Shown here piece after piece: positions 12,223-60,212 of a stretch of 64,000 nt of DNA. Both the position numbers and the translations under genes were made by a program. Within the stretch, counting starts at the first letter, position 1, and each line of letters opens with the position of its first letter. The notes under the pieces are model-generated. The model had not been told where the DNA came from, ran no database searches, and was given only the letters and a program-made list of their open reading frames with translations. Source of the DNA: an uncultured Actinomycetes bacterium (GTDB taxonomy: Bacteria > Actinomycetota > Thermoleophilia > Solirubrobacterales > 70-9); the NCBI GenBank assembly GCA_963824485.1, contig CAWGPH010000006.1:5491-69490 (forward strand), written 5' to 3'.

Positions 12223-12267
12223 CGATGGGCCGAAAACCGGACAGATGGTCCGGTTTTCGGCCCATCG
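12223..12267. repeat. Palindromic repeat family 2, copy 1
   Basis: Perfect 20-bp stem CGATGGGCCGAAAACCGGAC / GTCCGGTTTTCGGCCCATCG with a 5-nt loop. A near-identical copy lies at 54781-54825. Confidence 0.6.
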
Positions 12268-12310
12268 ACCGCACGCCGTTGCGGGACCGCCACGCAATAG
12301 GGTCCGGGCT

Positions 12311-14358: not shown

Positions 14359-14367
14359 CGCCTCCGC

Positions 14368-14406
14368 GTTCGCACTTATCGTCGGATAGCGACGATAAGT
14401 GCGAAC
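14368..14406. repeat. 39-bp hairpin repeat family 1, copy A (loop GATAG, inverted orientation)
   Basis: GTTCGCACTTATCGTCG-GATAG-CGACGATAAGTGCGAAC with a perfect 17-bp stem, between convergent genes. Confidence 0.8.
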
Positions 14407-14418
14407 TCACCGCGGGCG

Positions 14419-20375: not shown

Positions 20376-21036
20376 TTGGCACGGGCAGTCGGCATTCACC
20401 TTGGACGGCGACGACGCGACGGTCTTCATCGACCCCTGGGGTGACATGTCGGCGGCCGCGTCGCGCGGGATCGAGTGGGGGTACCCGGCGATCGAGGCAC
20501 CCGCCGCGGTCGACCTGCTGATCGTCACCCACGAGCACGCCGACCACAACGGCGTCGAGATCATCGACGGCGAGCCGACCCTGGTCCGCTCGGTGGCGGG
20601 GACGCACGCCGGGCCGATCGGTGACGTCGTCGCGATCGCCTCCGAGCACGACGGGGTGGCGGGGACCGAGCGTGGCCCGAACACGATCGTCGTCTTCGAC
20701 CTCGACGGGATCCGCGTCGCCCATTTCGGCGACTTCGGCCAGCCCGCACTGCGGCCGGAGCAACGGGCGCACCTCGACGGGATCGACCTGCTCTTCCTGC
20801 CGGTCGGCGGCGGCCCGACGATCGACGGCGCCACCGCGGCGGAGATCGCGATCGACCTCGGCGCTTCCTGGGTGGTGCCGATGCACTACAAGACCGCGAA
20901 GATCAACTTCCTCGAGACCGAGGAGTCGTTCGTCGAGGCGATGCCCGCCGCGCGGCGCCTCGATTCGCCCTCCTTCGACACGGCGGACCTGGAGCGGGGC
21001 TCCGGCCCGACCGCGATCGTCCCGGCCGCGCCCTAG
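20365..21036 (+). CDS. MBL-fold metal-dependent hydrolase (UPF0173-like)
   Basis: VDLLIVTHEHADHNG motif, about 223 aa. Confidence 0.75.
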   Translation: MRVDWHGQSAFTLDGDDATVFIDPWGDMSAAASRGIEWGYPAIEAPAAVDLLIVTHEHADHNGVEIIDGEPTLVRSVAGTHAGPIGDVVAIASEHDGVAGTERGPNTIVVFDLDGIRVAHFGDFGQPALRPEQRAHLDGIDLLFLPVGGGPTIDGATAAEIAIDLGASWVVPMHYKTAKINFLETEESFVEAMPAARRLDSPSFDTADLERGSGPTAIVPAAP

Positions 21037-21767
21037 ACGCCGGCGGCGGCGCGGGCGCTCGCGTGGGCGGCGCGCTCGAGGTCGTCGGGGAGCGGCTCGA
21101 GCCCGGGACGCTCGCCGTAGCGACGCTCCAGCGCCAGTTCGATCAGGTGGTCGGCGAGCCAGGCATTCTTCGGCAGGAGGGGTCCGTGCAGGTAGGTGCC
21201 GACCATGTTGTCGCGCCAGACGCCCTCCAGGCCGTCGCCGCCGTTGTTGCCATGACCTTTGAGGACCCGGCCGAGCGGCCGTGCGCCCGACCCGAGATAG
21301 GTGCGCCCGCCGTGGTTCTCGAATCCCGCCAGCAGTCGCTTCTCTCCGCCCAGCCCGGTCTCGATCGCGACGTTACCGATCAGCCGCAGCCCCTCCTCGC
21401 GGACCGTGCGCAGGTCGGCGAGGCCGAGCCCGGGCAGCGTCTCCTCACCGAGCTGGTAGCTCTCGCCGAGCAGTTGGTAGCCGCCGCAGACCGCGAGCAG
21501 GACGGCGCCGTCGTCGACCGCCTCGGCCAGCGCGGCCCGCTTGGTGTCGACCATGTCGGCGGCGACGACCCGCTGGTCGCGGTCCTGGCCGCCGCCGATG
21601 TAGAAAAGATCATGCTCGGCCGGGTCGACCGACTCGCCCGGGCCGGCGCCGCCCCAGACGAAGGCGATCTGCCGCCATTCGCAGCGCCGCTGCAGGAAGA
21701 GGATGTTGCCGCGGTCGGCGTAGATGTTCATCTGCTCGGGATAGAGGCTGAGGACGCGGAGCTCCAT
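21033..21767 (-). CDS. gatD: Lipid II isoglutaminyl synthase, glutaminase subunit GatD (CobQ/GATase-like)
   Basis: LSLYPEQMNIYADRGN, nucleophile LAVCGGYQLLG and GTYLHGPLLPKN, in an operon with murT. Confidence 0.8.
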   Translation of the reverse strand: MELRVLSLYPEQMNIYADRGNILFLQRRCEWRQIAFVWGGAGPGESVDPAEHDLFYIGGGQDRDQRVVAADMVDTKRAALAEAVDDGAVLLAVCGGYQLLGESYQLGEETLPGLGLADLRTVREEGLRLIGNVAIETGLGGEKRLLAGFENHGGRTYLGSGARPLGRVLKGHGNNGGDGLEGVWRDNMVGTYLHGPLLPKNAWLADHLIELALERRYGERPGLEPLPDDLERAAHASARAAAGV

Positions 21768-21768
21768 C

Positions 21769-22503
21769 TCAGCTTGCCTCGCCGAGGACGACGACGGTCG
21801 AGCCGACGTGGTCGTCGGTCGGGTCGATGTGGAGGCGTTCGATCGGGACCAGGCCGACCACGGCGGCCTCGGCCTCGAGCCGGTCGGCGGTCAGCGTGCA
21901 GATCGTCACCTGGTCGGGGATGTCGGTCAGCGCACCGGTCGGCGAGACCTTCTGGCGCAGCCGGTGGACGACGATCCGCTCCGGCCCGACCACCGCCTCC
22001 AGCGGCAGGCTCGAGTAGATCCAACCGTCGACCTCGCGCACGTCGGGGAGCAGCGGCTCGCCCTCTTCCGGCTCCGGCATCCCCTCGACGATCGCCGCCG
22101 CGACGCGGCCGCCGGGGAGCAGCTGGGCGGCGATCGAGTCGAGGCAGGAGAGCCGCTCGGCCCGGTTGGCGAGCATCTGCAGGAGCTGCATCGGGGCCAG
22201 CGCCAGGGCGACCGGCTCGGGCAGCTCGAAGCCGCGCGCGTCGGCGAGCAGCGGCGTCACCGGCAGGCCGGCGGCGCGCTCACGCTGGGCGGCGATCATC
22301 TCCTCGTCGGAGTCGAGGCCGATCACCCGGTGGCCGCGCCGGGCGAGGTGGATCGCGAGCCGGCCGGTGCCCGCGCCGAGCTCCAGGATCGGGTCGCCGC
22401 AGCGGTCGGCGAGGTCGGCCCAGACGCCCAGGTCGGCGGCGTAGGCGCCGCACTCGACGTCGTGCCAGATCGCGGCCTCCGAGGTCGAGGAGGACATGCT
22501 CAT
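21769..22503 (-). CDS. Class I SAM-dependent methyltransferase
   Basis: ILELGAGTGRLAIHLARRGHRVIGLDSD motif I. The ATG at 22503 overlaps the murT stop (ATGA). Confidence 0.75.
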   Translation of the reverse strand: MSMSSSTSEAAIWHDVECGAYAADLGVWADLADRCGDPILELGAGTGRLAIHLARRGHRVIGLDSDEEMIAAQRERAAGLPVTPLLADARGFELPEPVALALAPMQLLQMLANRAERLSCLDSIAAQLLPGGRVAAAIVEGMPEPEEGEPLLPDVREVDGWIYSSLPLEAVVGPERIVVHRLRQKVSPTGALTDIPDQVTICTLTADRLEAEAAVVGLVPIERLHIDPTDDHVGSTVVVLGEAS

Positions 22504-23993
22504 CGCCAGAACTCCTCGGCGAGGCCGCGGTCGGCGAGCAGCTTGCGAAGTTCGAGCAGCGCGGTGTAGGTGGGGAGGGCGAAGAGGCGGCCCCGCGAGG
22601 CGGCGACCGCGGAATCGAGCGAGGCCGCGATCTCGGCCTCGGCCACGATCGACTCCTCCGGCCAACCCGCGTACTTCAGCCGTAGCGCCATCTCCGGGGC
22701 GCGGGTGCCGGCGCAGGTGACGCGGCGCACGGCGCCGGCGAGCACCTCGAAGTCGGCGTCCCAGACCCAGGAGACGTCGCGCCCGTCAGCGATCCGATCG
22801 TTCAGCGCGATCCACAGATCGATCCCGTCCCCGCCGCCGTCCCCGCCGGTGCGTTCGCAGTTCTCGTCGCTATCCGACGAGAACTGCGAACGCACCCTGG
22901 GGGGCGTTCGCTCGGCCTCGAGTTTCAGCGTACGCAGGACCTCGTTTGCTCCCGCCGGGTTCTTGATCAGCAGGATCGCCAAGCGGGCGCCCTCATCGTT
23001 CATATCGATCGTCTCGACCCGGCCGAAGGCCGCCCGCATCCCGCGCAGCGCCGCCGCGATCCGGTCCGGCTCGATCCCGAGCCGCAGCGCCGCCGCGGTC
23101 GCCGCCAGCGCGTTGTAGACGTTGTAGAGGCCGGGGAGGGGGAGCGTCACCTCGATCTCACCGCCGGGGACCCGCACGGTCGCCGCCGAGCCCTCCATGC
23201 CGCGCAGCTCGATCCGCGTCGCGGCGACGTCGGGCCGCGGCCGCTGCGCGCCGCAGTTCGGGCACGAGTAGTGACCGAGGTGTCCGACGAAGGCGACCTC
23301 GTAGGCGTAGGGATGCCCGCAGCGCCGGCAGTGCTTGGCGTCGAAGGCGTGCTGCAGCTCCGGCAGCGCCTGCGAGTGGTCCTCGATACCGAAGTAGAGG
23401 ACGCCCTCGCGCGGCCGCTCGGTGTCGGGGTCGCGGCCGAGGTCGGCGATCAACGGGTCGTCGGCGTTCAGCGCCAGCCCGGTCCCGGCGGGCGCGGCGG
23501 CGACCGCCTTCGCCCACTCCTCGGCCAGCGCCTCCATCTCGCCGTAGCGGTCGAGCTGGTCGCGGAAGAGATTGCCGAGCACGATCAGGCGAGGGTTCAA
23601 CTGCTGGGCGACGCGCGGCAGCCAGGCCTCGTCGACCTCGAAGAGCCCCTCGGCGCCACGCTGCTCGAGCAGCGCCGTGGCGACGCCCCAGGTCATGTTC
23701 GAGCCCGCCCGGTTGTGAACCGGCGGCCGCCCCTCGGCAGCGAGGATCGCGGCGATCATCCCGGCCGTCGTCGTCTTGCCGTTGGTCGCCGAGACGATCG
23801 TCACACCGCCCGTCAGCCCGGCGCCGAGCCGCGCGATCGCCTCTGGCTCCATCCGCAACAGCACCCGTCCCGGCAGCGTCGTGCCGCCGCCGCGGCCGCT
23901 GTGCCTGCTGGCCGCGCCGATCGCCCGCGCCAGCGCCCGCTTGGCGCCGAAGGCCGGGCCACCGCCCCCTCGGGCCGACACGCCCGCGCTCAA
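22500..23993 (-). CDS. murT: Lipid II isoglutaminyl synthase, Mur-ligase subunit MurT, carrying an in-frame repeat insertion
   Basis: P-loop ATNGKTTT, C4 zinc ribbon CRRCG...CPNCG, and the C-terminal domain ALNDRIADGRDVSWVWDADFE. Hairpin repeat copy B encodes RSQFSSDSDENCE inside the CDS. Confidence 0.85.
   Translation of the reverse strand: MSAGVSARGGGGPAFGAKRALARAIGAASRHSGRGGGTTLPGRVLLRMEPEAIARLGAGLTGGVTIVSATNGKTTTAGMIAAILAAEGRPPVHNRAGSNMTWGVATALLEQRGAEGLFEVDEAWLPRVAQQLNPRLIVLGNLFRDQLDRYGEMEALAEEWAKAVAAAPAGTGLALNADDPLIADLGRDPDTERPREGVLYFGIEDHSQALPELQHAFDAKHCRRCGHPYAYEVAFVGHLGHYSCPNCGAQRPRPDVAATRIELRGMEGSAATVRVPGGEIEVTLPLPGLYNVYNALAATAAALRLGIEPDRIAAALRGMRAAFGRVETIDMNDEGARLAILLIKNPAGANEVLRTLKLEAERTPPRVRSQFSSDSDENCERTGGDGGGDGIDLWIALNDRIADGRDVSWVWDADFEVLAGAVRRVTCAGTRAPEMALRLKYAGWPEESIVAEAEIAASLDSAVAASRGRLFALPTYTALLELRKLLADRGLAEEFWR
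22853..22891. repeat. 39-bp hairpin repeat family 1, copy B (inside murT CDS)
   Basis: GTTCGCAGTTCTCGTCG-CTATC-CGACGAGAACTGCGAAC with a perfect 17-bp stem. 39 nt equals 13 codons and there is no stop in the murT frame. Confidence 0.85.
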
Positions 23994-24871
23994 GCCGCGG
24001 CCGGCGGGACGAGCACCCGCAGGGCGCCGGGGATCACGCGCAGGTCGGCGGGCAGGTCGGTGAGGTGCTCGCCGTCGGCGTAGACCGCGAAGGGTCGGCT
24101 GGCGCTGAGGCCGAGCCGGGAGGCGCGGATGACGGTGACCTCGTCGATGTGGACGTGGGTGCCCTTGAACACCTTGGTCAGGTTATAGAGCGCCCGGAGC
24201 TTGCCCATGTCGGAAATCGTCACCACGTCGAACTTGCCGTCGTCGAGCTCCGCGTCGGGCGCGATGTACATGCCGCCGCCGTAGGCCTTGTTGTTGGCGA
24301 CGACCACGTCATAGCCCTCCATGCGCGTGCGCTCCTCACCGATCACGATCGTGAAGCGGGCCGACTTCCAGGTCGCCATCGTGCGCAGCGCGGCGTAGAG
24401 ATAGACGAGGGTGCCGCGCACGAAGCGGGTCTCGTTGGCGCGACGGTTGGCGTCGGAGTCGAAGCCGACGCTGGCGATGCCGAGGAAGGGTTTGCCGTTG
24501 GCCTCGCCGACGTCGATCGGGCGGCTGTGGTCGGCGAGGACGACCTCGATCGCCTCCTCCGGCTCGGTCGGGATGCCGAGCACCCGCGCCAGGTCGTTGC
24601 CGCGGCCGCCGGGGACGATGCCGAGTGGCGTCTCCTCGCCCGCCATCGCGCCGCCGATCGCGCCGACCATGCCGTCGCCGCTGATCACCACCGGCAGCTC
24701 GCCGCCCTCGATCGCCCGCAGCGCTTTCGCCACGGCGTGGTCGAGGCTCTTGGTGCGGACGACACGGAAGGGGACGCGGCGGGCGTCGAGCACCGCCTCG
24801 ACCCGGGGGAGGGCCTTCAGCGCCCGGCCCCCGCCGGACGAAGGGTTGACGAGCAGGACCAGGGGATTCAT
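23990..24871 (-). CDS. Diacylglycerol/lipid kinase family protein (YegS/DagK-like)
   Basis: LLVNPSSGGGRA, VVISGDGMVG and PGGRGNDLAR motifs. Start and stop overlap the neighbouring genes by 4 nt. Confidence 0.8.
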   Translation of the reverse strand: MNPLVLLVNPSSGGGRALKALPRVEAVLDARRVPFRVVRTKSLDHAVAKALRAIEGGELPVVISGDGMVGAIGGAMAGEETPLGIVPGGRGNDLARVLGIPTEPEEAIEVVLADHSRPIDVGEANGKPFLGIASVGFDSDANRRANETRFVRGTLVYLYAALRTMATWKSARFTIVIGEERTRMEGYDVVVANNKAYGGGMYIAPDAELDDGKFDVVTISDMGKLRALYNLTKVFKGTHVHIDEVTVIRASRLGLSASRPFAVYADGEHLTDLPADLRVIPGALRVLVPPAAA

Positions 24872-25356
24872 CCGCTCACCCTATGGGCGACGAGGAAGCT
24901 GCCGGCGCCGGCGGGCTCCTCGGCGACCGTCTCGAAGCCGCGAGCACGCAGAGCGCGGGTCAGGAGCCAGGCGGAGAAGCCGCTCCCGGCCGCGGCGCCA
25001 CGGGTCGCGGCGAGGGCCAGGTAGCCGCTGGGCCGCAGGACCCGGGCGAGCTCCGTCGCCGCGGGTCGCGCGTCGACCACCGCGACCAGGTCGAAATGGT
25101 CGTCCGGATAGGGGATGCGGCGCGGCCCGCCGACCTTGAAGGCGACCCGTCCCTCGGGATCGAGCCCGACCCGCCGGCTCGCCGCGGCGACCGCCCCGGC
25201 GTCGGCGTCGATGCCGCGCACCCGCGCCGTGGGGAACTCGCGGGCGAGGAAGAGCGTCGCCTCGCCGTCGCCGCAGGCGACCTGCAGGACCCGCTCCGGC
25301 CTGCCGACATGGAGCACCGCGGCGGCCAGTGGCGTCAGCGGCGGCGGGCTCGACAT
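24868..25356 (-). CDS. Small class I SAM-dependent methyltransferase
   Basis: VLQVACGDGEATLFLA motif I. The internal ATG at 25356 is chosen because the upstream part of the track ORF looks like non-coding read-through. Confidence 0.65.
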   Translation of the reverse strand: MSSPPPLTPLAAAVLHVGRPERVLQVACGDGEATLFLAREFPTARVRGIDADAGAVAAASRRVGLDPEGRVAFKVGGPRRIPYPDDHFDLVAVVDARPAATELARVLRPSGYLALAATRGAAAGSGFSAWLLTRALRARGFETVAEEPAGAGSFLVAHRVSG

Positions 25357-37237: not shown

Positions 37238-37256
37238 GAGGGCCGGCCCTCGATGA

Positions 37257-37295
37257 GTTCGCAGTTATCTCCGCTATGCGGAGATAACTGCGAAC
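37257..37295. repeat. 39-bp hairpin repeat family 1, copy C
   Basis: GTTCGCAGTTATCTCCG-CTATG-CGGAGATAACTGCGAAC. The stem is perfect, with an inner-stem sequence different from copies A and B. Confidence 0.8.
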
Positions 37296-37367
37296 GCCGG
37301 CCGGGCGGCCAGCGCGGCGCGCCGCGGGAACTCGCGGCGGCGGCTCATGAATTCATCTCCACCCTTC

Positions 37368-40138: not shown

Positions 40139-40221
40139 CTCTCGGCTCCTCCCGGCGGCCGCCGCCCCACGGCGACCTGTTTGGCTGGCTGGCCAGTAAG
40201 TTAGCGGACCCCGCCCGGCGC

Positions 40222-40260
40222 GTTCGCACTTTGCTTCGCTATCCGACGATTTCTGCGAAC
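40222..40260. repeat. 39-bp hairpin repeat family 1, copy D (degenerate stem)
   Basis: GTTCGCACTTTGCTTCG-CTATC-CGACGATTTCTGCGAAC. The termini and loop are conserved but the inner stem is mismatched. Confidence 0.7.
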
Positions 40261-40264
40261 GCGT

Positions 40265-41347
40265 TCAGGGCGATTCGGTGGGGCCGGGATAGATGCGGAA
40301 GGCGAGCCAGGCGATCGCGATCCCGATCGCCGTCCCCAGCGCCCGCTGCGCGTCGGCGTGCAGGGCGGTCTCGCCGAGGGTGTCGGTGAGCAGGACGACG
40401 TAGGTGGTGATCGCCGCCGTGAACAGCGCGTACTGGACGGTCAACAGGCCGAAGGTGAGCGCGGCGGAGACGCTGAGCGCGATCACGACCCACGGCTCGA
40501 CCCCGGAGAAGGCGGCGGCGAGACCGGTGGCGATCCCGAGGCCGAGCGCGGTCCCGACCGCGCGCAGGATGAGGCGGTGGTCGGTCTCGTCGCGTTCGGG
40601 GCGTAGGACGAAGAGCAGGGTCAGTGGGATCCAGTAGCCGTGCTCATGCAGTTCCAGCACCCGGTAGAGGGCGACGCCGACCGCGAGCGCGGTGCCGAAG
40701 CGGAGCGCGTGGCGGGCCGCCTGCGATTCGAGGGTGAAGTTGGAGCGCAGGCGCGCCTTGGTGCGCCGCCAGTCCCAGCCGCTGTCGTTGTCGGGGCTGC
40801 GATCGTGGACGAGCCAGACGCACCCCGCCCAGGCCGCCTGCAGCAGCCCGCCGAGCGTGCCGTAGAGGAAGGCGGGAAGCACGTCGGAGGCAGGCAGGAA
40901 GAAGCCCTGGCTGAGCACCAGCGCGACCGCCGCGCCGAAGCCGACGAAGGCGAGCCGGAGGGTGTCGGCGAAGCAGTAGCCGGAGGCGGCGGCGATCAGG
41001 CCCATCGCGAGCACGGCGGCGGGCGCCGACTGGCTGGAGAGGATGCCGAGCGCCGCTCCCGCCCCGACCAGCGGCGCGGCGCCCGCCTGCCAGAGCGCGC
41101 GCGGGCCGGCGGGCGCGTCGAGCGCCGTGAAGCCGCAGACGAAGGCAGCGGCGGCGATCGCCCCGCGCGAGGGCCAGTCGAAGGAGAACTCGAAGATCAG
41201 CGCGAGCGCGATCGGCACCGCGACCAGGGCGCCGCGGCGCAGCGCCGGGCCGGGCGCGGCGGGGCCGATCGAGAAGAGCGGCGAGGCGCGCAGGCGCTCC
41301 ATCTCGCCCGAGGCGTCGTAGAGCCGGGGCCTGGTCGGGGTGGGCAT
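40265..41347 (-). CDS. Integral membrane protein, FUSC-like
   Basis: Multi-TM protein with YWIPLTLLFVLRPE, which resembles the FUSC family. The ATG at 41347 is chosen because the upstream part of the track ORF is Arg/Gly-rich. Confidence 0.6.
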   Translation of the reverse strand: MPTPTRPRLYDASGEMERLRASPLFSIGPAAPGPALRRGALVAVPIALALIFEFSFDWPSRGAIAAAAFVCGFTALDAPAGPRALWQAGAAPLVGAGAALGILSSQSAPAAVLAMGLIAAASGYCFADTLRLAFVGFGAAVALVLSQGFFLPASDVLPAFLYGTLGGLLQAAWAGCVWLVHDRSPDNDSGWDWRRTKARLRSNFTLESQAARHALRFGTALAVGVALYRVLELHEHGYWIPLTLLFVLRPERDETDHRLILRAVGTALGLGIATGLAAAFSGVEPWVVIALSVSAALTFGLLTVQYALFTAAITTYVVLLTDTLGETALHADAQRALGTAIGIAIAWLAFRIYPGPTESP

Positions 41348-48012: not shown

Positions 48013-49107
48013 GTGTCGTCGATTGCCGACTGGCCCCGCGTGGTCGCAATTGTTGACATGGACGCGTTCTATGCGTCCGTCGAGCTGCGGCGGCATCCGG
48101 AGCTGAAAGGGAAGCCGGTGGTGGTCTGCGGATCAGGGCCGCGGGCGGTGGTGACGACGGCGAGCTACGAGGCGCGGAAGCTGGCCGGGATCCGCTCGGC
48201 GATGCCGGCCTCGGTGGCGCGGCGGAGGCTGCCGAACGCGGCCTACATCAAGCCGGACTTCCCCGCCTACCGGGAGGCGTCGGCGCTGGTGATGGACGTG
48301 CTGCGCTCGAACGTCGAGGTGGTCGAGGTCGTCGGCCTCGACGAGGCGTATCTCGACCTCACCGGGATCTTCTCGCCGAAGGCGACGATGCGCCGGATCA
48401 AGGCGGAGATCCGCGAGGTGACCGGGCTGACCTGCTCGGTCGGGATCTCGGAGAGCCGCATGCTGGCCAAGATGACCAGTGAGCTGGGCAAGCCGAACGG
48501 GCTCGTCGTGATCTCCCGCGAGGAGGCGCTCGCCCGCTTCGGCGCCGGGCCGCCCGGCGTCGTCCCCGGGATCGGGCCGAAGACCGCCGAACGGCTGGAA
48601 AAGCTCGGCATCGCCACCCTCGGCGCACTCGGCGAGTGGGACCGGGGTGACCTCGAAGCGCGTTTCGGGCCCCGCTCCGGCGCCTGGCTCCACGCCCGCG
48701 GCAACCTCCGCGACGAAACCCTGATCACGATCACGCGCGAGACGAAATCGCAGTCGGTGGAGACGACCTTCGACGTCGACGTCGCCGAGCTCGCGGCGCT
48801 CGAGCGGACGCTCCGCGACCAAGCCGAGGAGCTCTGCCGCCGGCTCGCCAAGAAGGAGCTGGAGGGGCGCTCGATCGGGATCAAGGTCCGCCTCGACGAC
48901 TGGACCAACATCACCCGCTCACAATCCGTCGAGACACCGACCAACGACCCGGAGGTCGTCTGGCCGATCGCGCTCGACCTGCTGCGGGCCTACGACCCGC
49001 CGCGGCCGGTCCGCCTGCTCGGCGTCCGCCTCGCCTCGTTCGAGAACGAGGCCGACGACGACGCCGGGGAGGACGAGCCGCAACTCCGGCTCACCCTCCC
49101 CGGCTGA
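48013..49107 (+). CDS. dinB: DNA polymerase IV (Y-family)
   Basis: VAIVDMDAFYASVE, SYEARK, LDEAYLD, SVGIS and GIGPKTAERL. A GTG start at 48013, downstream of the LexA box, is assumed. Confidence 0.9.
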   Translation: MSSIADWPRVVAIVDMDAFYASVELRRHPELKGKPVVVCGSGPRAVVTTASYEARKLAGIRSAMPASVARRRLPNAAYIKPDFPAYREASALVMDVLRSNVEVVEVVGLDEAYLDLTGIFSPKATMRRIKAEIREVTGLTCSVGISESRMLAKMTSELGKPNGLVVISREEALARFGAGPPGVVPGIGPKTAERLEKLGIATLGALGEWDRGDLEARFGPRSGAWLHARGNLRDETLITITRETKSQSVETTFDVDVAELAALERTLRDQAEELCRRLAKKELEGRSIGIKVRLDDWTNITRSQSVETPTNDPEVVWPIALDLLRAYDPPRPVRLLGVRLASFENEADDDAGEDEPQLRLTLPG

Positions 49108-49120
49108 CAACGGCCGGCGC

Positions 49121-49159
49121 GTTCGCAGTTCTCTGCGCTATCCGACGATAAGTGCGAAC
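49121..49159. repeat. 39-bp hairpin repeat family 1, copy E (hybrid arms)
   Basis: GTTCGCAGTTCTCTGCG-CTATC-CGACGATAAGTGCGAAC. The left arm resembles copy B and the right arm resembles copy A, so the stem is imperfect. Confidence 0.75.
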
Positions 49160-49177
49160 GCGGTCGGCGCGGCGCGG

Positions 49178-49837: not shown

Positions 49838-49855
49838 CGTGTTTGACTCGCTTTC

Positions 49856-50012
49856 TGCTGCCTACGGGGTTAGCTGACGGGCTCGCGGACCCCGGCGCTG
49901 CGGCCGATGTCCGTTACAGGCGGCAAGCCGCCCGATTCGCCCCAGACACCGCGGCCTGGTGGTCGCCGCGGCAATTGGTTCCCCCGCTCCCCGTCGCGCT
50001 TCGGCGAGGGGA
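49856..50012 (-). promoter_or_regulatory. ydaO/yuaA-type cyclic-di-AMP riboswitch in the 5' leader of the RlpA-like gene
   Basis: The minus-strand RNA contains GAGCGGGGGAACCAAU, GGGGCGAAUC and GCCCGUCAGCUAACCCCGUAGGC. These closely match, as I recall them, the B. subtilis ydaO segments GAGCGGGGGACCCAAU, GGGGUGAAUC and ACCCGUCAGCUAACCUCGUAAGC. The element ends about 20 nt before the ATG. Confidence 0.8.
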
Positions 50013-50193
50013 CTCGGCAGATGGGTTCTTTCCTTTGTGCCCGGAACACGCTATGGAGCGGCCGGGTGCGTCCGTGTGACCGGCCTCACAGACGTGACGA
50101 ACGGCACGAAAGCGTGCAAAGGCGCCCAAATGGCGCTGCAAAGCCAAAGAATCGCCGTCACACGGCCGGAACGCCGTATGCGAAGATGGACCG

Positions 50194-54761: not shown

Positions 54762-54780
54762 TCCGTCACACCGCCGCCGC

Positions 54781-54825
54781 CGATGGGCCGAAAACCGGAC
54801 CCATAGGCAGGTTTTCGGCCCATCG
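54781..54825. repeat. Palindromic repeat family 2, copy 2
   Basis: CGATGGGCCGAAAACC...GGTTTTCGGCCCATCG has the same arms and flanks as 12223-12267 and a longer apex. It lies between convergent genes. Confidence 0.6.
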
Positions 54826-56338: not shown

Positions 56339-56354
56339 CCCGCCGGCGGACTGC

Positions 56355-56393
56355 GTTCGCAGTTTCCTGCGCTATCCGAGGATAACTGCGAAC
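56355..56393. repeat. 39-bp hairpin repeat family 1, copy F
   Basis: GTTCGCAGTTTCCTGCG-CTATC-CGAGGATAACTGCGAAC. The stem is imperfect, and the copy lies between convergent genes. Confidence 0.75.
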
Positions 56394-56400
56394 TCGCCGG

Positions 56401-60004: not shown

Positions 60005-60163
60005 CGTGCTCCTTAGAGAGAGTTGCGCCGGCCCGCCTTCACGACGGCGGGAGCGCAGTATAGATCGGTCGACCAAAAGGTTCAACCGCAGGTTGAAGGT
60101 TCCCGAGGAGCGCGCGGCCGATCGGCGCCCGAGGCGATTTCAACCCTCACCCCCACCCCGAGC

Positions 60164-60202
60164 GTTCGCACTTATCGTCGCATACCGACGAGAAGTGCGA
60201 AC
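60164..60202. repeat. 39-bp hairpin repeat family 1, copy G
   Basis: GTTCGCACTTATCGTCG-CATAC-CGACGAGAAGTGCGAAC, with one stem mismatch and a variant loop. Confidence 0.75.
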
Positions 60203-60212
60203 TCACCGGTGG

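Follow-up and report, generated by a model that had tools for sequence, protein, structure and literature searches.

The window analysed here, a 64,000-nt stretch from the genome of an uncultured soil member of the Solirubrobacterales (Thermoleophilia, Actinomycetota), contains a coding sequence for a cell-wall enzyme that is interrupted in frame by a long hairpin. The locus raises the question of how such a palindrome came to lie within a working gene and whether it serves the gene that carries it. The identity of the host gene and of its partner was established from the following features:

22500 to 23993, minus strand: murT coding sequence (Pfam, sequence matches in the PDB, invariant alignment columns, AlphaFold2 model, and Foldseek)
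21033 to 21767, minus strand: gatD, encoding the partner glutaminase (Pfam GATase_3, E 1e-32), downstream of murT in the same operon

The murT product comprises 497 aa when counted from a TTG start. Pfam assigned Mur_ligase_M and MurT_C to the open reading frame, and the sequence matches in the PDB (6fqb, 9sq9, 6gs2; E 1e-55 to 1e-60) corresponded to MurT chains whose structures are solved from S. pneumoniae, S. pyogenes, and S. aureus. The P-loop, the Cys4 zinc ribbon, and the catalytic-triad Asp406 were all intact, with K73, C222, C225, C244, C247, and D406 forming invariant columns of the MurT alignment. The features by which MurT is recognized, namely a Mur ligase middle domain joined to MurT_C, a Cys4 zinc ribbon, a triad Asp within the motif ND..ADG.D.SW, and a nearby gatD, were present together, a gene encoding a SAM-methyltransferase being situated between murT and gatD. 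The locus therefore resembles the MurT/GatD lipid II amidotransferase (6fqb, 6gs2, 7q8e, 9sq9) both in its full MurT, with P-loop, zinc ribbon, C-terminal domain, and triad Asp, and in the gatD of its operon. The catalytic-triad Asp is D349 in S. aureus (PMC6113224) and D355 in S. pneumoniae (PMC6085368), with which D406 of our protein can be equated. Among the genomes of the clade that bears the insert, murT showed dN/dS values of 0.12-0.23 at dS of 0.28-0.41; the gene is under purifying selection and still working. The placement of the hairpin within a murT coding sequence, proposed in a first-pass annotation made from the sequence alone, was thus borne out. Within this gene, the following elements were delimited:

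22838 to 22906, no strand assigned: palindromic element composed of a C-rich flank, a 41-nt conserved core GNGTTCGCA...TGCGAACNC, and a G-rich flank (inverted repeat with 32-nt arms, 88% complementary; consensus of 168 copies)
22848 to 22869, no strand assigned: left arm of the perfect 22-bp stem (direct sequence and fold)
22870 to 22874, no strand assigned: loop CTATC (GAUAG in the mRNA), source of the TAG stop in the single closed frame
22875 to 22896, no strand assigned: right arm of the perfect 22-bp stem (direct sequence and fold)
22825 to 22848, no strand assigned: exact 12-nt tandem duplication, CCGTCCCCGCCG x2, encoding GGDG-GGDG (read from the sequence)
22827 to 22910, minus strand: inserted coding segment, residues 362-389 (RTPPRVRSQFSSDSDENCERTGGDGGGD), delimited by alignments and absent from ~105 relatives

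The first-pass annotation had described a 39-nt unit with a perfect 17-bp stem lying between two conserved segments of murT. Its position between NPAGANEVLRTL and ALNDRIADGRDVSWVWD was upheld and the stem is indeed perfect, but the stem extends over 22 bp, and the inserted unit amounts to ~69 nt plus the 12-nt duplication, the element of this family measuring ~65-69 nt with its semi-conserved C-rich and G-rich flanks. The strong intragenic secondary structure that had been anticipated was also recovered: an 86-nt stretch around the stem folded, as RNA, at -63.9 kcal/mol (z = -8.8), a stability reached by 0 of 200 shuffles. Direct reading agreed with the earlier statement that the murT frame is free of stops (...PPRVRSQFSSDSDENCERTGGDGGGDG...) and that TAG occurs in another frame, since two of the three frames through the hairpin are open, both of them being in use in other genes, and the remaining frame is closed by TAG in the loop. 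The length and phase of the element keep the frame open, so that ribosomes would translate it. Translation of the murT insert, with a predicted product that includes the peptide SQFSSDSDENCER, is also indicated by spacings in multiples of three. The 12-nt duplication accounts for four additional residues, and its second unit is absent from the sister copies at loci L031 and L032.

The repeat family suspected in the first pass proved to be real, being represented by 7 copies within the window and by 168 across the whole genome. Its core, GTTCGCA-N25-TGCGAAC, is symmetric, and the pattern TTCGC-N27-GCGAA occurred 168 times in the 3.0-Mb genome, compared with 2-18 times at adjacent spacings; an nhmmer search retrieved 172 loci. 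The consensus of the 168 copies, ccccccggtGcGTTCGCAgTT.TCgTCGCat.GCGAcGA.AAcTGCGAACgCacc.gggg.gg, comprises the 41-nt core and semi-conserved C-rich and G-rich flanks, with a total length of ~65-69 nt. Five inner stem positions were paired in only 38-69% of the copies. When the hairpins were ranked by stability, the murT copy was 5th of 168 and 1st among the intragenic copies, a position that would be unexpected if strong hairpins in coding sequence were costly and that leaves room for a function. According to a simple self-trained gene caller, 138 of the 168 copies (~82%) were intergenic, 12 were situated at gene ends, and 18 lay within open reading frames, the genic share being ~8-10%. Convergent gaps were enriched, holding 40 of 136 intergenic copies compared with 265 of the 1554 intergenic gaps longer than 40 nt, while divergent gaps were avoided (19 of 136 copies, 417 of 1554 gaps). 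Twelve tandem pairs were found, with spacings of 61-72 nt. The motif GTTCGC-N27-GCGAAC was also abundant in four related genomes, with 69, 237, 196, and 250 copies, whereas reversed-pattern controls in related genomes gave 0-1. Genome G043 held only 3 copies, and this genome, in which the family is nearly lost, retains only scars.

Alignment of MurT orthologues, proposed in the first pass as a check for a lineage-specific insertion, supported the existence of one. The segment between RTL and LND spans 40 residues in our protein compared with 12-22 (mode 14) at the loci of ~105 relatives, and the same gap measures 6 residues in the solved MurT structures. A segment of equal length, which would have argued against an insertion, was looked for among the ~105 relatives and was not seen. 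The extra ~26-28 aa correspond to the ~69-nt element together with the exact 12-nt tandem duplication. A real, lineage-specific event, in which a mobile palindromic repeat entered a tolerant MurT loop in frame, is well supported.

The place of the insert in the protein was examined with an AlphaFold2 model built on 48 homologues (mean pLDDT 84.1, pTM 0.87), for which the best Foldseek matches were MurT/GatD structures with target-normalised TM-scores up to 0.82-0.83. The only stretches of low confidence were the N-terminus and residues 365-388 (pLDDT <50), which fall between a helix at 346-362 and a strand at 391-397. The insert is thus modelled as disordered in an otherwise confident fold, in agreement with the permissive loop that the first pass had proposed. 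The insert lies 16 residues ahead of the catalytic-triad Asp, and the strand that follows it runs to ND..ADG.D, whose last Asp is D406. Judging from the order of secondary structure elements, the insert and Asp406 would occupy opposite ends of the same strand, with the insert at the N-terminal end, away from the catalytic loop and probably exposed on the surface away from GatD. A location in the inter-domain hinge was considered and rejected: in S. pneumoniae MurT this hinge is Gly303-Arg304, within the FGR motif (PMC6085368), which corresponds here to residues 323-325, ~40 residues upstream of the insert. The insertion accordingly lies inside the C-terminal domain, in a helix-to-strand loop. 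The MurT C-terminal domain contacts GatD (PMC6113224).

Comparison with related genomes provided information on the age of the insertion. The closest metagenome-assembled genomes, represented by L031 (89% identity) and L032 (87%), carried the element at an identical codon, with orientation and frame also unchanged, and with insert peptides reading SSLKSSDSDENCER and SSQKSPDSGDNCER, respectively. The flanks around the element were homologous between L001 (the murT locus of the window) and L031, and the L032 element was devoid of the C-rich left flank; in both relatives the hairpin contained internal loops, making the pairing imperfect. L002 had a longer and very different insert with a decayed copy at the same N27 spacing, while in L033 a 31-residue segment retained the G-rich flank motif and no hairpin, representing a scar. 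The insert was absent from L034 and all remaining relatives, so that the uninterrupted allele sought in the clade was found in L034, and L033 offered a scar only. Across the genomes that bear it, the segment ranged from 27 to 45 aa. An assembly or consensus artefact of the metagenome-assembled genome might be invoked, as palindromic repeats are able to mislead assemblers. However, L031 and L032 were assembled independently in other studies and share the insert at the identical codon, the reading frame is unbroken, and each of the two halves of murT aligns co-linearly with the orthologues. The insert being common to independent assemblies, we regard an artefact as excluded for practical purposes, with next to no probability left to it.

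In a tree of codon-aligned murT DNA from which the insert had been removed, L001, L031, L032, and L033 formed one clade (support 100/98), and these four together with L034 and L002 formed a six-genome clade (support 100/100). A constraint grouping all five insert-bearing rows was not rejected (p-AU 0.19). The sequence record places the murT insertion before the window genome itself and makes it common to the four-genome clade. Since the insert is shared and murT is under purifying selection, a working gene has retained it across several speciation events. The nesting of L034, which has no insert, within the six-genome clade implies a precise loss, a second gain, or a weakly supported branch that is wrong.

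Mobility of the family was assessed at intergenic sites. In addition to the murT copy, the window contained the following copies:

14366 to 14412, no strand assigned: family copy (window repeat search)
37255 to 37301, no strand assigned: family copy (window repeat search)
40220 to 40266, no strand assigned: family copy (window repeat search)
49119 to 49165, no strand assigned: family copy specific to the window genome (G000); empty in G041, G042, and G044, with another palindrome in G043
56353 to 56399, no strand assigned: family copy specific to G000; no family copy in five relatives, with other palindromic sequences in G041 and G001
60162 to 60208, no strand assigned: old family copy; orthologous copy with a different inner stem in G044, left-flank remnant ending GAGCGTT in G041 and G043

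For three of these intergenic copies, the syntenic regions were inspected in five relatives. At the 49119 copy, a clean empty site was found in G041, G042, and G044 (CCCGGCTGA[CT]|GCG...), lacking the C-rich and G-rich flanks; the flanks thus arrive with the element, and their interpretation as target DNA was rejected. No clear target-site duplication was observed at the filled and empty sites compared. Judging by clean empty sites in sister genomes, intergenic copies have been recently mobile. The initial proposal of a mobile hairpin that was retained after inserting into a permissive surface loop is supported by these G000-specific copies with empty sites, by the lineage-specific insertion, by the disordered loop, and by the purifying selection on murT.

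The inner stem of the repeat differed among genomes, with the following numbers of copies per type:

inner stem TCGTCG/CGACGA: G000 69, G041 16, G042 1, G044 1, G001 0
inner stem TCCCCG/CGGGGA: G000 1, G041 0, G042 70, G044 0, G001 0
inner stem TCACCG/CGGTGA: G000 0, G041 0, G042 6, G044 0, G001 0

The murT copy had an inner stem of the TCGTCG type in G000 and G041 and of the TCACCG type in G042, and the murC copy of G042 was of the TCCCCG type. In G000, the murT core was identical at 39 of 39 positions to a copy on another contig and one base off at least 5 other copies. Genic copies therefore match the inner stem of their host genome, which simple drift does not explain, and they would have been converted or replaced; for murT and murC, possession of the variant of their own genome suggests conversion or replacement in situ, and for the murT copy conversion is the mechanism we would assume. 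This co-variation of genic copies with the family of their own genome is the sole feature that goes beyond the textbook picture. As a tentative extension, which we hold to be possible and somewhat doubtful, copies could be rewritten in place even within essential genes by a repeat-specific homogenising or re-targeting machinery, neither RAYT nor DUF559, as opposed to undergoing passive decay.

Insertion within genes was not restricted to murT. We identified 13 copies in frame within 11 Pfam-verified genes, murT included, a number that represents a lower bound. Single copies were found in ispE, a FadH-like reductase, a GNAT gene, nnr, hydantoinase B, an AddA-like helicase-nuclease, murT, a tandem rhodanese, and a gene encoding an Acetyltransf_6 protein, while prmC and murC carried two copies each. 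In these genes, the Pfam domains either flank the repeat on both sides or span it. Apart from one copy in a membrane protein lacking Pfam verification, genic copies were confined to the two open frames and encoded peptides resembling S(S/R)(Q/H)(F/L/K)SS.SDENCER or RVRS..RI....AN(A/S). The spacing of tandem genic pairs was 63 and 72 nt, both multiples of 3, compared with mostly 61-62 nt between genes. For these copies, excision or translational bypass of the kind known from byp elements and T4 gene 60 was rejected: none of them contains a stop, and their tandem spacings are divisible by 3, in keeping with ordinary translation and selection for the frame. A single murC site was occupied in G000 (by two copies), G041, G001, G042, and G044, and G043 had a repeat-free segment there.

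The inner-stem variants also bear on whether the murT loop is a hot spot that was hit independently several times, in each lineage by its own variant. Such repeated insertion would account for the lineage-specific inner stem of each genome's copy, for the L032 element without its C-rich left flank, for the longer and very different insert of L002, and for the nesting of the insert-free L034 within the clade, and the family is still mobile. Nevertheless, site, orientation (loop GAUAG), and phase coincide in L001, L031, and L032, the L001 and L031 flanks are homologous, and the four insert-bearing genomes form the clade described above, with a single origin for all five not rejected. Moreover, murC, occupied at one site in five genomes, and the old intergenic copy repeat the pattern, so that many coincident re-hits would be needed. 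We consequently judge independent hits to be unlikely, albeit with an appreciable chance, and prefer a single ancestral insertion followed by renewal of the copy.

A further possibility is that the hairpin was kept as an RNA element of the murT-methyltransferase-gatD transcript, acting as an RNase III site or a translational pause that influences the MurT:GatD ratio or co-translational assembly. The stem is perfect and highly stable, its 22 bp being about the minimal length of an RNase III substrate, and an RNase III gene is present in the genome; among intragenic hairpins the murT copy ranks first in stability, and a hairpin has been kept at the site in three genomes. Against this role, the L031 and L032 hairpins have internal loops, the L002 copy is decayed, and the L033 hairpin is lost; the orthologous hairpins being imperfect, decayed, or lost, pairing is not conserved. 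In addition, this element occupies 138 intergenic positions and is found in frame within at least 11 unrelated genes, and the five inner stem positions noted earlier pair in only the fraction of family copies given above. A scan of 20900-25000 revealed no U-tract, terminator, or promoter, and Rfam returned no family at the hairpin, only sub-threshold microRNA-precursor noise that is typical of long hairpins. The single gathering-level Rfam match in the window, a c-di-AMP riboswitch, was located elsewhere. Retention of the hairpin as an RNA element of this transcript appears improbable, and a dedicated regulatory role is given a slim chance at most.

The inserted peptide could alternatively be an adaptive addition to MurT, such as a new interaction surface or a regulatory loop. 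Its retention over a dS of ~0.3-0.4 in three genomes and its location within the domain that contacts GatD (PMC6113224) would agree with this. By contrast, its length and sequence vary freely (27-45 aa, with a scar in L033 and absence in L034), the segment is disordered in the AlphaFold2 model, and its peptide motifs recur in unrelated enzymes; an adaptive origin is therefore considered very improbable.

We hold it very likely that the murT hairpin derives from an ancestral insertion of a REP/MITE-like element that is translated as a disordered loop, persists as a near-neutral passenger, and is renewed from its own family. In the proposed sequence of events, a genus-level palindromic element (~65-69 nt, ~170-250 copies per genome) would have inserted into murT in the ancestor of a small Solirubrobacterales clade, landing in the MurT C-terminal domain, where a loop joins its first helix to the next strand. 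Translation would then yield a loop of 23-24 hydrophilic, disordered residues, which a 12-nt slippage duplication would have extended to 28 here. The enzyme would tolerate this loop, the insert probably being close to neutral, and the murT copy may be renewed by gene conversion from, or replacement by, other copies.

Candidates for the enzyme that moves the element were sought among RAYTs, DUF559 nucleases, and genes bracketed by repeats, and no transposase or other mobilising enzyme was found among them. RAYT genes, which encode Y1 HUH transposases (PF01797, Y1_Tnp) and usually have REPs on either side, had no match in G000, which is 92% complete, while the controls matched in 6 of 14 genomes. 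The DUF559 nucleases were rejected, since for 12 paralogues, with a single exception, the nearest repeats lay kilobases away. Small genes with a repeat on each side were likewise discarded; judged by their sequences they resembled ordinary housekeeping genes (glutaredoxin-like, cupin, Crp, TetR, Nudix, CrcB, and similar), and none had the look of a nuclease or transposase. MITEs carry terminal inverted repeats and a target-site duplication and derive from an autonomous insertion sequence; here the element is an inverted repeat throughout, and no parent insertion sequence was found.

The related genomes span filled, converted, decayed, scarred, and empty states, together with near-loss of the family in one lineage, and could therefore serve as a natural system for following the spread, homogenisation, and death of REP-like elements and for finding the enzyme that moves them. 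The MurT loop tolerates 13-31 extra residues, which would be useful for tagging or engineering MurT/GatD, a proposed drug target in pathogens (PMC6113224, PMC6085368). For genome annotation, these observations serve as a warning that odd low-complexity segments of Solirubrobacterales proteins can be translated repeats.

When compared to known repeat systems, the family shows the features by which REPs are recognized (PMC12306157), namely shortness, palindromy, high copy number, a common consensus, and a location mainly outside coding sequence and close to gene ends, with 168 copies, a 41-nt palindromic core, 82% of copies between genes, and enrichment in convergent gaps. Within the library searched, no paper joined Solirubrobacterales with repetitive extragenic palindromes. 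GTAG/CGTC REPs, described by Di Nocera, De Gregorio and Rocco in 2013, are found mostly downstream of genes, in gaps between convergent or tandem ones, with an intragenic minority that encodes 20-30 residues, and are often dimers (PMC3733652). CGTC repeats were surveyed in Proteobacteria, Chlorobi, Bacteroidetes, Spirochaetes, and Thermotogae, Actinobacteria being unnamed in the main text of that paper (PMC3733652). Our family is similar in being composed of short palindromes that lie mostly outside genes, with an intragenic minority and dimers, but it has no terminal tag, its ends GNGTTCGCA...TGCGAACNC are symmetric, and CGTC is confined to the variable inner stem of G000-type copies. REPINs are mobilised by RAYTs, inherited vertically, and organized as close pairs around a lineage-specific 'master' sequence (PMC3116915, PMC3337134); the high copy number and the populations differing between related genomes are shared with our family, which differs in the absence of a RAYT and in pairs that are tandem units at 61-72 nt. 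With neither a GTAG/CGTC tag nor a RAYT, the family is REP-like in behaviour and is not shown to belong to those families.

The closest parallel for the copies within genes is offered by the Rickettsia palindromic elements (RPEs; Ogata et al. 2000 Science, 2002), dispersed palindromes that, according to a review (PMC10969869), often lie in frame in unrelated housekeeping genes and are translated as an extra, fold-compatible peptide, most copies being described there as having no evidence of function. The likeness resides in the 13 copies in frame in 11 unrelated genes and in the disordered murT insert within a confident fold. The element described here is nevertheless ~65-69 nt long compared with ~100-150 bp for RPEs, and probably unrelated to them in sequence, the likeness being one of behaviour; its host is a free-living member of the Actinomycetota (Solirubrobacterales) with 70% GC; its genic share is ~8-10%, whereas RPEs are far more often genic; and its genic copies track the family variants of their lineage. 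Length and GC being greatly different, the murT case may be described as an RPE-like coding palindrome in behaviour, with no membership of that family claimed. [quoted passage not shown]

Besides the copy in murT, the palindromic hairpin repeat (GTTCGCA-N25-TGCGAAC) of the uncultured Solirubrobacterales genome (G000) also entered a second Mur ligase gene, murC, located outside the window at contig C3:247615-250059. This gene carried two tandem copies, both in frame, spaced by 63 nt and situated within the Mur ligase middle domain, and the same site held a single copy in G041, G001, G042, and G044 and a scar in G043 (loci of the relatives, L111-L115). The murC open frame in G000 extended into murB, giving 814 aa with MurC and MurB domains; it may represent a genuine fusion, or it may be a mere read-through by the ORF caller used.

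G043 (locus L117 and the genome as a whole) belongs to the clade with the insert-bearing murT; its genome contained only 3 copies of the repeat, compared with 170-250 in its relatives, and scars without the repeat were found at three sites, namely murT, murC, and the old intergenic copy at 60162-60208 of the window. This near-loss, together with the repeat-free scars, makes G043 a natural contrast in the search for the mobilising gene. As for the genes of G000 itself, 12 loci encoded paralogues no longer than about 300 aa bearing a DUF559 (Vsr-like endonuclease) domain at the C-terminal end, a large set for a genome of 3 Mb; they were not adjacent to copies of the hairpin repeat. These and other features are exemplified as follows.

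Examples of DUF559 paralogues (contigs of G000) and features of the window
C9:2709-3560, DUF559 paralogue
C10:261142-261963, DUF559 paralogue
C3:224470-225339, DUF559 paralogue
21769-22503, minus strand, SAM-dependent methyltransferase gene between murT and gatD, its start overlapping the murT stop
49844-50016, minus strand, c-di-AMP (ydaO/yuaA) riboswitch (Rfam, gathering level, 46.3 bits)
12223-12272 and 54776-54825, two copies of a second palindromic repeat, GATGGGCCGAAAACCGG...CCGGTTTTCGGCCCATC, unrelated to the murT-type repeat

The methyltransferase is an unusual partner within the murT-gatD amidation operon.

At window positions 49100-49170 and 56340-56400, G000 carried the hairpin repeat, and other palindromic sequences occupied these intergenic sites in G043, G041, and G001 (loci L117, L118, and L121); it thus appears that several hairpin repeats have landed time and again in these gaps at gene ends. 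On contig C1 of the sister genome G041, the murT-type repeat formed arrays of 3-4 units with a period of 61-63 nt (e.g., 63914-64076 and 128322-128547), whose units were of differing inner-stem subtypes, a mosaic organization that is BIME-like.
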